DNA from: Mesoplasma florum L1
GTDB lineage: Bacteria > Bacillota_I > Bacilli_A > Mycoplasmatales > Mycoplasmataceae
Assembly (NCBI RefSeq): GCF_000008305.1
Contig: NC_006055.1
Location: 1 to 32,000, forward strand
Direction of reading: 5' to 3'
DNA: 32,000 bases
The notes under the pieces are model-generated. The model was given only the letters and a program-made list of their open reading frames with translations. It had not been told where the DNA came from and did not search any database. Position numbers and translations under genes: made by a program. Position 1 is the first letter of the stretch. Every line of letters begins with the position of its first letter. Of this stretch, positions 29,965-32,000 are shown piece after piece.

Positions 29965-30090
29965 ACTTATACAGGGTAGCATAATGGGCTACTGACCCCG
30001 CCATGAAACCTATTTCATGACTATAGGTCTTTATAAACACTTTAATTAAAGTTTCTTTCAACATCAAAACTTGAAAGAAACTTTTTATTT
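29965..30090 (+). promoter_or_regulatory. Purine-riboswitch-family aptamer (guanine/2'-deoxyguanosine class) plus intrinsic-terminator expression platform, copy 1
   Basis: P1: CUUAUA (29966-71) pairs with UAUAGG (30022-27). P2: GUAGC-AUAAUGG-GCUAC. J2/3: UGACCCCGCC. P3: CAUGAAA-CCUA-UUUCAUG. A C sits at the specificity position in GA-C-UAUA. The terminator is AAAGTTTCTTTCAA (30048-61) / TTGAAAGAAACTTT (30071-84) followed by a T-run. The downstream gene starts at 30126. Confidence 0.85.
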
Positions 30091-30125: not shown

Positions 30126-30965
30126 ATGAAAAAATTAATAGCAATTTTAGGGGCAGTTGGATTAACTGCTACAGGTTCAGCAAGTTTATTAGTTTCTTGC
30201 TCAACACCAGTTGAAAAAGATTTTTCTTCTGAAATAGGCAAAATGGTAAAAGATTACATAAAAATTGATCAGGGAACTATATATGAAGATTCAAATGAAA
30301 TTTATACAAAATTGAAATCGTTTAATAAAGAAATGGAATCTGAAATTTTAAAATTAAAAAATGTAGATGGAGTTTCAAAGTTTAATGAAAAAGAAGGAAC
30401 ATTTTCTGATCCTGATTCAAGCATTAAACCATCAAGCGCAGATGCGGTATGATTTCATTCAGTTTACACATCATCAAGTGTAAGCGAATTCTCAAATAAT
30501 AATGATTTTAATAAGTGAACAATTACTATTCAATACAGAACACCAGCAACTAATAAAACAACTGGTGAATTATATTGAGGAAAATATAATAAAACTTACA
30601 TAAATGATATTGAATTTTTTAAAGCTAAAAAACCTAATGCGATATTAAAAAACTCAGATGGAACAGAGCAATCAGAAAATTCTTTTACTCTTGTAGATAA
30701 TGAAGTAAAGATTAGAGTAGATAAAGGTTATAATAGAGAAAACATAATTCTTAATGGAAATGAAAAAATTACGGATATAAATATTTCACTTGATACTCAA
30801 TTATTTGAAGAACCTGAAATAAAATTAGGCAATGATAAATTCCCAACATATTTTGATTTAACACTTAAATTAAAACAGGGACAAACATTATCAGTAGACC
30901 AAAAAATATTTATTAAATTACCATCATTTCAAGATATTAAACTAATAATTAAAGCACAAAATTAA
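30126..30965 (+). CDS. Lipoprotein of unknown function (riboswitch cassette 1)
   Basis: RBS AAAGGA precedes ATG 30126. Signal peptide plus lipobox: MKKLIAILGAVGLTATGSASLLVS-C. I checked the frame codon by codon through TGA at 30450, 30516 and 30576 to TAA 30963-30965, giving 279 aa. I recognise no family. Confidence 0.85.
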
Positions 30966-30971
30966 TAACAG

Positions 30972-30980
30972 TGATATAAT
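30972..30980 (+). promoter_or_regulatory. Extended -10 promoter (TGaTATAAT) of riboswitch cassette 2
   Basis: TG at 30972-73 and TATAAT at 30975-80, starting 7 nt after the stop of the preceding lipoprotein gene and 24 nt before P1 of aptamer 2. Confidence 0.55.
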
Positions 30981-31004
30981 TTTGTTAACAACTTAATATG
31001 AAAA

Positions 31005-31104
31005 ACTTATACAGGGTAGCATATTGGGCTACTGTTCCGCCTCAAGACCAATCTTGAGACTATAAGTGTAAAGGTTTTTTGGTTATCAAAAAACCTTTTT
31101 TATT
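31005..31104 (+). promoter_or_regulatory. Purine-riboswitch-family aptamer plus intrinsic-terminator expression platform, copy 2 (variant J2/3)
   Basis: P1: ACUUAUA (31005-11) pairs perfectly with UAUAAGU (31061-67). P2: GUAGC-AUAUUGG-GCUAC. J2/3: UGUUCCGCC. P3: CUCAAGA-CCAA-UCUUGAG, which is fully compensatory relative to copy 1. The terminator is a perfect 12-bp stem AAAGGTTTTTTG (31070-81) / CAAAAAACCTTT (31087-98) followed by TTTTATT. Confidence 0.85.
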
Positions 31105-31148
31105 ATCTAAAGTTTTTCTTTAGGTTGTATTCAAAATTAGGGGGAAAT

Positions 31149-31826
31149 ATGAAAAAATTATTAGCAATTTTAGGAGCAGTTGGATTATCAGTAACAGGAG
31201 CTTCAATAGTAGTTTCTTGTGGTGGTAATGGTAATACTGATATTACAGATCCTGAAACAGGCTTAGTTGCATTATCAAAAATAAAAAATTTAACTTTAGA
31301 TTTAGGGGAAATTGGAGAAAACAGTTCGCTGAATATATCTAAAGCTTTTTTTGAAAAAAATGAATCTGTATTAAAAAAAGCTGTTGGAGATACATTAACT
31401 GCAAATATGTTTTATGTTTCAAAAATAACTTCAACTTCAGCAACAATTACAGGTAAAAATACTAACCAGGAATTATTAAGTCCATCTGCAGATTTTGCAG
31501 TAACAGTTAGTTTTACATCAGAAAGCGATGGAAGAATAGACTTAGCAAAATTAGAAGGTCTAGTTACAAGTAATTTAATTGTTAATAAAACAAAGTATCA
31601 AGGAACAGGAAATTATGACAAATCAAATGCTATTGCAGATGCATTAATAGAAGCAAATAAAGAACTACTAAAAGAAACAGTAGCAAAAGATTTTTATTTA
31701 TTAAAGTCTGATCTTGTTGAACCGTCAGACGGCAAACCTGGTGTAGCAAAATTAGAAGGTAGCACATCAAGTTTAAAAGTAAAAAGTGGTTCACCAGTAG
31801 AAATAACATTTACACTAAGCGAATAA
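31149..31826 (+). CDS. Lipoprotein of unknown function (riboswitch cassette 2)
   Basis: RBS AGGGGA precedes ATG 31149, which is internal to track ORF 31125..31826. Signal peptide plus lipobox: MKKLLAILGAVGLSVTGASIVVS-C. Length is 225 aa with no TGA. Confidence 0.85.
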   Translation: MKKLLAILGAVGLSVTGASIVVSCGGNGNTDITDPETGLVALSKIKNLTLDLGEIGENSSLNISKAFFEKNESVLKKAVGDTLTANMFYVSKITSTSATITGKNTNQELLSPSADFAVTVSFTSESDGRIDLAKLEGLVTSNLIVNKTKYQGTGNYDKSNAIADALIEANKELLKETVAKDFYLLKSDLVEPSDGKPGVAKLEGSTSSLKVKSGSPVEITFTLSE

Positions 31827-31858: not shown

Positions 31859-31947
31859 TGACTCTTATTTAATTTGTATATATAATAATATCACAAAAAT
31901 TAACACTTAACATTGTATTTAGTTTTTATAAAAAATAAATAATATAT

Positions 31948-31975: not shown

Positions 31976-32000
31976 ACTTATACATGATAACATATCGGGT
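31976..32000 (+). promoter_or_regulatory. 5' part of a third purine-riboswitch-like aptamer (truncated by the window end)
   Basis: ACTTATACATGATAACATATCGGGT shares the P1 5' strand ACUUAUAC and the upstream leader AACTTAATA..AACTTATACA with copies 1 and 2. The rest lies outside the window. Confidence 0.5.

Follow-up and report, generated by a model that had tools for sequence, protein, structure and literature searches.

The aptamer at 31005-31067 on the forward strand of the Mesoplasma florum L1 genome, referred to here as copy 2, is very probably one of the four published 2'-dG-I riboswitches, namely a type II variant that turns off transcription of the lipoprotein gene mfl022. The window that was analysed consists of bases 1-32000 of the 793,224-bp single-contig genome (GCF_000008305.1; PMC10884336). 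Copy 2 matches the Rfam 2dG-I family (RF01510) over the full model (1-63) with a score of 85.6 bits and an E-value of 1e-17, and a neighbouring aptamer on the same strand, copy 1 (29965-30028), scores 87.4 bits; both lie above the gathering score of the family (51 bits), and together they make up the two matches above threshold in the window. It was stated in 2017 that the known 2'-dG-I examples number only four, all of them from M. florum (McCown 2017). The L1 genome holds exactly four aptamers with a cytosine at the position equivalent to U51 of the xpt riboswitch (at 625,525, 29,965, 668,875 and 31,005), and because this count is also four, we infer that copy 2 is one of the published examples. 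In addition, the coordinates of published transcription tables fit the window exactly, and these tables already flag the terminator of copy 2 as a riboswitch (Matteau 2020, Datasets EV1/EV3). Copy 2 is a catalogued, already known element of the model strain in which the family was discovered; it has the same organism, coordinates and family as the M. florum type II 2'-dG-I variants (RF01510), shows no structural difference from them, and is probably the published type II element itself. Kim, Roth and Breaker (PNAS, 2007) reportedly divided the M. florum 2'-dG-I aptamers into type I and type II, and we take the core differences between copies 1 and 2 to be that same division. Likewise, the sequence at 625,525 is presumably the crystallised switch upstream of nrdF, which is called I-A below. 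Copy 2 by itself thus adds nothing new, as it is in Rfam, has its terminator flagged in published tables and is, by inference, in the 2007 paper; the comparative observations presented below (the distribution of the aptamers, a mosaic cassette, a C/U toggle, a conserved hairpin and an array) may be the only new parts of this work.

The architecture of copy 2 was derived from the covariance-model match, and its helix coordinates were checked by folding and by covariation. Its elements, along with the comparator, are as follows.

31005-31067, + strand: aptamer copy 2
31005-31011/31061-31067, + strand: P1 of copy 2
31012-31014, + strand: J1/2 of copy 2, CAG
31015-31020/31028-31033, + strand: P2 of copy 2
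31021-31027, + strand: L2 of copy 2, AUAUUGG
31034-31040, + strand: J2/3 of copy 2, GUUCCGC
31041-31047/31052-31058, + strand: P3 of copy 2
31048-31051, + strand: L3 of copy 2, CCAA
31059-31060, + strand: J3/1 of copy 2, AC
29965-30028, + strand: copy 1, the comparator, a type I aptamer with the 8-nt J2/3 GACCCCGC, upstream of the lipoprotein gene mfl021

Copy 2 forms a P1/P2/P3 three-way junction with a 7-nt L2, a 4-nt L3 (shorter than in canonical purine riboswitches) and GG/CC loop-loop pairs. P3 is a genuine helix, which is no surprise in an established family. A first-pass annotation of this DNA had given P3 as CAUGAAA/UUUCAUG in copy 1 and CUCAAGA/UCUUGAG in copy 2 with all seven base pairs preserved, and these strings are exact, but its count of six differing positions out of seven has to be lowered to four (positions 2, 3, 4 and 6), as positions 1, 5 and 7 are the same in both copies. 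All four changes from copy 1 to copy 2 are double compensatory (A-U to U-A, U-A to C-G, G-C to A-U and A-U to G-C). The annotation had also quoted J2/3 with its flanking bases (UGACCCCGCC in copy 1, UGUUCCGCC in copy 2), L2 (AUAAUGG in copy 1 as opposed to AUAUUGG) and L3 (CCUA in copy 1 as opposed to CCAA), in each case correctly, and it had called P2 and J1/2 almost identical; they are indeed alike, but in fact fully so, as is the 5' strand of P1. Its view that P3 is selected as RNA structure agrees with an alignment of 21 distinct type I and type II aptamers from 9 genomes, in which compensation goes beyond chance expectation: both-sided changes occur at 5/7 P3 pairs and 3/6 P2 pairs, 96.6% of the paired cells hold a pair, the observed covariation was reached by none of 500 shuffles, and pairing falls to 33-44% when the partners are slid by 1-3 columns.

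Copy 2 and I-A share the same fold, with identical P1 5' strand, J1/2 and P2, and alignment to I-A identifies I-A-like pocket residues in copy 2 at C31012 (C31 in I-A), C31038 (C58, the U51 equivalent) and C31060 (C80); the equivalents of C31, C57, C58 and C80 and the OFF logic are common to both. They differ in L2 and L3 (AUAAUGG and CCUA in I-A) and in J2/3, where copy 2 lacks the 8-nt GACCCCGC of I-A and has the 7-nt GUUCCGC. Judged against the RF01510 consensus, whose own J2/3 is 7 nt long, the shorter junction marks a type II subtype and not an exclusion from the family. The linker between P1 and the terminator also differs, being ~40 nt in I-A, whereas the copy 2 terminator follows P1 by 2 nt, and I-A regulates a ribonucleotide reductase, whereas copy 2 regulates a lipoprotein. 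The RF00167 family is defined by U22, U51, an 8-nt J2/3 (GUUUCUAC) and a 7-nt L3; in copy 2, both pocket positions are C, J2/3 is 7 nt long and L3 is 4 nt long. [quoted passage not shown] The metagenomic 2'-dG-II class of the Bacteroidetes and the 2'-dG-III class found with Bacillus nucleoside hydrolase are purine folds in which J2/3 changes open the sugar pocket, as in copy 2. However, two nucleotides inserted in J3/1 and a junction-proximal G-C pair in P1 are required for 2'-dG-II (PMC6847200), whereas J3/1 of copy 2 is AC only and its top P1 pair is A-U, and 2'-dG-III, unlike copy 2, acts as an ON switch and is associated with nucleoside hydrolase genes.

The L1 genome contains seven RF01510 matches and one RF00167 match (484,045), and three core types can be distinguished among the RF01510 aptamers.

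Type I: 8-nt J2/3 GACCCCGC; 625,525 and copy 1 (29,965), with J2/3 identical in both
Type II: 7-nt J2/3 of the form G-N-N-CCGC; 668,875 (GAACCGC) and copy 2 (GUUCCGC)
Type III: 7-nt J2/3 GACCUGC, with U at the xpt U51 position; 31,976, 778,204 and 397,045 (the guaA leader)

The expression platform of copy 2 is 79% identical to that of the 668,875 aptamer and 53% identical to that of copy 1, and the copy 1 platform is 69% identical to that of I-A. On these sequence identities, copies 1 and 2 are members of different paralogue lineages. We also considered copy 2 as a recent tandem duplicate of copy 1, a candidate that was rejected because each copy is nearer to a distant paralogue in both core and platform. 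The type III aptamers, exemplified by the guaA leader at 397,045 and the cassette at 31,976, resemble copy 2 in their 7-nt J2/3, short L2 and L3 and compact terminators, but differ from it in the U at the U51 equivalent (GACCUGC), a CAU J1/2 and a different P2 sequence.

The cassette at 31,976 is the third aptamer of the region (31976-32038; L005), and it runs past the edge of the window. It is a mosaic. P3, L3 and the P1 3' strand, which make up its 3' half, match the syntenic aptamer in genome G013 (G013:41476) with 100% identity, whereas its 5' half (J1/2, P2 and J2/3) has only 72% identity to the same G013 orthologue but 94% to the type III aptamers at 778,204 and 397,045. The loci used in this comparison were G013:41476, G017:29114 and L099:2336-2398. 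The pattern suggests that the aptamer half that bears specificity was swapped between paralogues by gene conversion.

The expression platform of copy 2 and the gene that it precedes comprise the following features.

30972-30973 and 30975-30980, + strand: promoter, consisting of a TG extension and the -10 element TATAAT (from sequence; Matteau 2020, EV1/EV3, gives the -10 at 30974-30980, 0-based)
30987, + strand: transcription start (A) of the copy 2 leader, TU_022 (5'-RACE gTSS assigned to peg.22/mfl022, 1704 RSPM; Matteau 2020)
31000-31013, + strand: predicted 5' strand of the antiterminator (AT), made up of the A-rich leader and the P1 5' strand (folding)
31070-31101, + strand: intrinsic terminator with a 12-bp stem (31070-31081/31087-31098), the loop GUUAU and a U run (31096-31101) (terminator scan, folding)
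31107-31123, + strand: small hairpin, CUAAAG-UUUUU-CUUUAG, between terminator and ribosome-binding site (folding)
31139-31144, + strand: ribosome-binding site, AGGGGG (sequence)
31149-31826, + strand: mfl022 (peg.22), a 225-aa genus-restricted surface lipoprotein with spiralin-like features and no Pfam domain

The promoter motif published for M. florum is TAWAAT with an EXT element. The mapped start site lies 18 nt upstream of the aptamer, and the terminator, which begins 2 nt past P1, overlaps the predicted stem-loop at 31072-31095 that carries the riboswitch flag in the published tables (Matteau 2020). By computation, this terminator competes with an antiterminator that uses the P1 5' strand, which is the arrangement of a transcriptional OFF platform. 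We folded successive transcripts from the mapped start at 30987 and compared their minimum free energy (MFE) structures. Transcripts that extend no further than 31075 are predicted to adopt the aptamer as their MFE structure. When the 3' end lies at 31081-31092, the MFE structure is instead a 13-bp AT helix formed by 31000-31013 and 31067-31080, with a predicted energy of -22.3 kcal/mol as compared to -17.9 for the aptamer alone; once the 3' strand of the terminator is included, the best full-length structure combines aptamer and terminator at -29.7. For the 668,875 paralogue and four orthologues, folding likewise predicts an AT helix with 13 pairs or more. A canonical antiterminator that uses the P1 3' strand was considered as well and rejected, because the terminator starts 2 nt after P1 and leaves no such pairing.

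Because the full-length MFE structure favours the terminator regardless of ligand, regulation by copy 2 would have to be kinetic. For I-A, it has been demonstrated experimentally that the antiterminator is formed by nucleotides 9-23 of the 5' end ("P1a") and a downstream AT strand, that the full-length RNA is OFF regardless of ligand, and that 2'-dG acts within a co-transcriptional window by locking P1 (PMC12268651). We take P1a to correspond to the 5' leader and the P1 5' strand. By this one analogy and the folding predictions, copy 2 would be a kinetically controlled OFF switch of the I-A design, with a much more compact platform. In the proposed mechanism, transcription starts at 30987, as mapped by 5'-RACE, and the three-way-junction aptamer folds, as indicated by the covariance-model match and by covariation. 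When no ligand is bound, the weak, AU-rich 7-bp P1 would open and 31000-31013 would pair with 31067-31080; the resulting antiterminator would sequester the 5' half of the terminator, such that the polymerase reads into mfl022. When ligand is bound, P1 would be locked, the terminator (31070-31098) would form and transcription would stop at the U run.

The hairpin block at 31107-31123 is conserved in type II leaders (668875, G013, G014, G015 and G017), with a closing pair that is C-G in copy 2 and U-A at 668,875. The hairpin is similar to the 5' half of the type I terminator together with its tail, and may be a remnant of that terminator.

The first-pass annotation had argued that J2/3 lines the ligand pocket in this riboswitch class and that the two adjacent cassettes probably respond to different purine compounds or with different affinities. 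This ligand hypothesis is reasonable, but it is not new and probably restates the type I and type II distinction of the discovery paper. Its structural premise stands, as residue contacts in I-A place J2/3 at the ligand and its sugar: C58 forms a pair with the guanine along its sugar edge, C57 touches O4', a stack of the three nucleotides preceding C57 walls the deoxyribose pocket, and recognition of the base is completed by C31 and C80 (PMC6847200). The same work reported that the single U51C substitution in xpt converts its preference from guanine to 2'-dG (PMC6847200), a shift that mirrors the natural difference between type III and type II. When aligned to I-A, copy 2 keeps the equivalents of C31, C57, C58, G59, C60 and C80, and the residues that contact the base (the J1/2 C, the CC-GC end of J2/3 and the J3/1 C) are the same in copies 1 and 2. 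Since the base-reading residues are those of I-A (J1/2 C, U51-position C and J3/1 C), a 2'-dG-like ligand is indicated, and copy 2 most probably senses 2'-deoxyguanosine or another guanine nucleoside close to it. The pocket wall is where the two copies diverge, as A54-C55-C56 of I-A is replaced by U-U in copy 2, making the wall one nucleotide shorter. We found no account of a type II ligand profile in the secondary literature, nor in the supplementary information of the 2'-dG-III paper.

What the shorter wall does can be read in several ways, and the identity and the length of the wall bear on them differently. Orthologues differ freely in the two nucleotides of the wall (AC, AA, AU, UU and UC): the wall is AC in the cassette syntenic to copy 2 in the genomes labelled M. 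coleopterae and in G013 and G017, and UU in M. florum L1 and strain MQ3, with UU arising independently in another genus as GUUCCAC. Their identity appears to be weakly constrained because it varies among orthologues of the same genes, and it is unlikely that UU as such specifies a different purine compound. This variation fits drift as well as it fits tuning, and it gives some weight to a reading in which copies 1 and 2 have the same ligand and the same profile and their J2/3, L2 and L3 differences are neutral paralogue drift. All base-contacting pocket residues are identical, as that reading would have it, and the third position of L3 and position 4 of L2 also vary across the family. However, the length of the wall is stable. 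The leaders of nrdF carry the 8-nt GACCCCGC in 8/8 genomes compared, and the 7-nt J2/3 of the C type precedes only lipoprotein and transporter genes, never nrdF. As the two length classes are conserved across species and partitioned by gene, the length difference appears to have been selected; moreover, I-A forms its deoxyribose pocket with the three nucleotides in front of C57, and losing one of them should alter sugar recognition. We therefore regard neutral drift as doubtful, though it merits real consideration. The part of the ligand hypothesis that concerns affinity or selectivity is plausible, as the length classes are conserved and split by gene, and the part that concerns a different compound is less so, as the base-contacting residues are identical and UU drifts in orthologues. 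The shorter sugar-pocket wall is expected to change the affinity for the ligand, the discrimination between 2'-dG, guanosine and guanine, or both, relative to copy 1.

A stronger version, in which the natural ligand of copy 2 differs qualitatively from that of copy 1 and is guanosine, a pool of G nucleosides, guanine or a phosphorylated compound such as dGMP, has several observations in its favour. A single substitution separates the type II core from that of type III, which precedes guaA and nucleoside-importer genes, and C and U alternate in orthologous leaders of sister species. The type II aptamer at 668,875 lies in front of a phosphonate-type ABC importer operon whose three genes encode a PhnD-like lipoprotein, an ATPase and a fused permease, and the PhnD-like fold usually binds phosphorylated ligands; the members of the 2'-dG-II and 2'-dG-III classes also vary widely in how well they discriminate 2'-dG from guanosine. 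Nevertheless, C at the U51 equivalent is a known determinant of nucleoside over nucleobase recognition (xpt U51C), these RNAs are classed in the literature as 2'-dG-I (McCown 2017), and nothing in the sequence of copy 2 indicates a phosphate-binding element, such that a qualitatively different ligand is unlikely. Copy 2 could also be a decayed, non-binding aptamer whose terminator either attenuates transcription constitutively or belongs to the upstream gene mfl021. No terminator is present between the mfl021 stop (30965) and the copy 2 leader, the published transcription-unit (TU) tables end mfl021 transcripts at the 31072-31095 hairpin, and RNA contigs bridge 30857-31016. Against decay, copy 2 has kept all of its helices, the GG/CC contact between the loops and the full set of pocket residues, it is identical in strain MQ3 and its aptamer is near-identical in the genomes labelled M. 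coleopterae, and it has its own strong promoter, with a start site 18 nt upstream, and a conserved predicted antiterminator; we consider this reading highly improbable. A last and speculative proposal treats type II as a specificity class of its own, either a sensor of pooled G nucleosides or one with a much higher set-point, and the three cassettes (type I at 29,965, type II at 31,005 and type III at 31,976) as a graded sensor array for products of DNA and purine breakdown whose 5' halves are exchanged by gene conversion. It would fit because the third cassette is mosaic and because of the C/U toggle in orthologous leaders of sister species, and we hold it as tentative and rather unlikely. 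The reading that we prefer remains that of a type II 2'-dG-I OFF switch with a 2'-dG-like ligand.

Aptamers of this kind are found well beyond M. florum. RF01510-type matches are present in 34/81 genomes of the family, including 6/6 genus-mates, and C occupies the U51-equivalent position in at least 12 genomes from 6 genera (loci L038-L097). The 8-nt forms GACUCCAC, GUCUCCAC and GAUUCCAC lie upstream of an nrdF homologue, of genes resembling ribonucleotide reductases and of DHH (NrnA-like) phosphoesterase genes; among these downstream genes, nrdF alone was checked by N-terminal identity, and the other ribonucleotide reductases were assigned by N-terminal resemblance. As judged from these matches, the 2017 statement of four examples in one organism is out of date, and the occurrence of natural 2'-dG-type aptamers beyond a single organism is the comparative value of the analysis. 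The type II and type III cores can differ by one substitution (GACCCGC as compared to GACCUGC), and the toggle between U and C at the xpt U51 equivalent is seen in the leaders of orthologous genes in sister species. Downstream of the third cassette lies an ABC-importer operon whose leader core is of type III in L1 and MQ3 but of type II in G012, G013, G017 and the genomes labelled M. coleopterae (loci L005, L045, L071 and L039). The leader of a Bmp-type lipoprotein gene is type III in five genus-mates (L006, L049, L056, L060 and L064) and carries GAUCCGC in G017 (L074). Together, the 8-nt and 7-nt classes partitioned by gene and the C/U toggle constitute a natural mutational series for the retuning of purine-aptamer selectivity. 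In genome G013, five consecutive RF01510 aptamers occupy ~5.3 kb (G013:36256-41538; L043-L048), each before a lipoprotein gene; their types in order are II, II with a 1-nt deletion in P3, I, II and II.

The gene regulated by copy 2 offers no clue to its ligand, because all that was recovered for mfl022 is a spiralin-like, genus-restricted lipoprotein. Only lipoprotein signal-peptide models match it in Pfam and NCBIfam, the homologue search returned M. florum and M. coleopterae only, and the spiralin-like assignment comes from Atlas features. Both mfl021 and mfl022 are transcribed in culture, as judged by RNA contigs (assembler contigs). In the published data, the start site of copy 2 has 1704 RSPM and mfl022 an FPKM of 681, as compared to 123 RSPM and an FPKM of 3249 for copy 1 and 1288 RSPM and an FPKM of about 3500 for the third cassette (Matteau 2020). 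These figures are compatible with stronger attenuation at copy 2, although mRNA stability and upstream read-through confound them. The expression of mfl022 in rich medium, which is evident from both the published FPKM and the RNA contigs, means that the switch is not fully off there. The published TU tables also list read-through units that end at the copy 2 terminator, and copy 2 may additionally gate transcripts from two upstream promoters. An antisense start (a-gTSS, 147 RSPM) was mapped by the published 5'-RACE at 31877 on the minus strand, facing into mfl022. Outside the window, in the G000:95278 region, a start site in the published TU table is parted from peg.74-77 by a predicted terminator, with the remark "Possible new riboswitch?".
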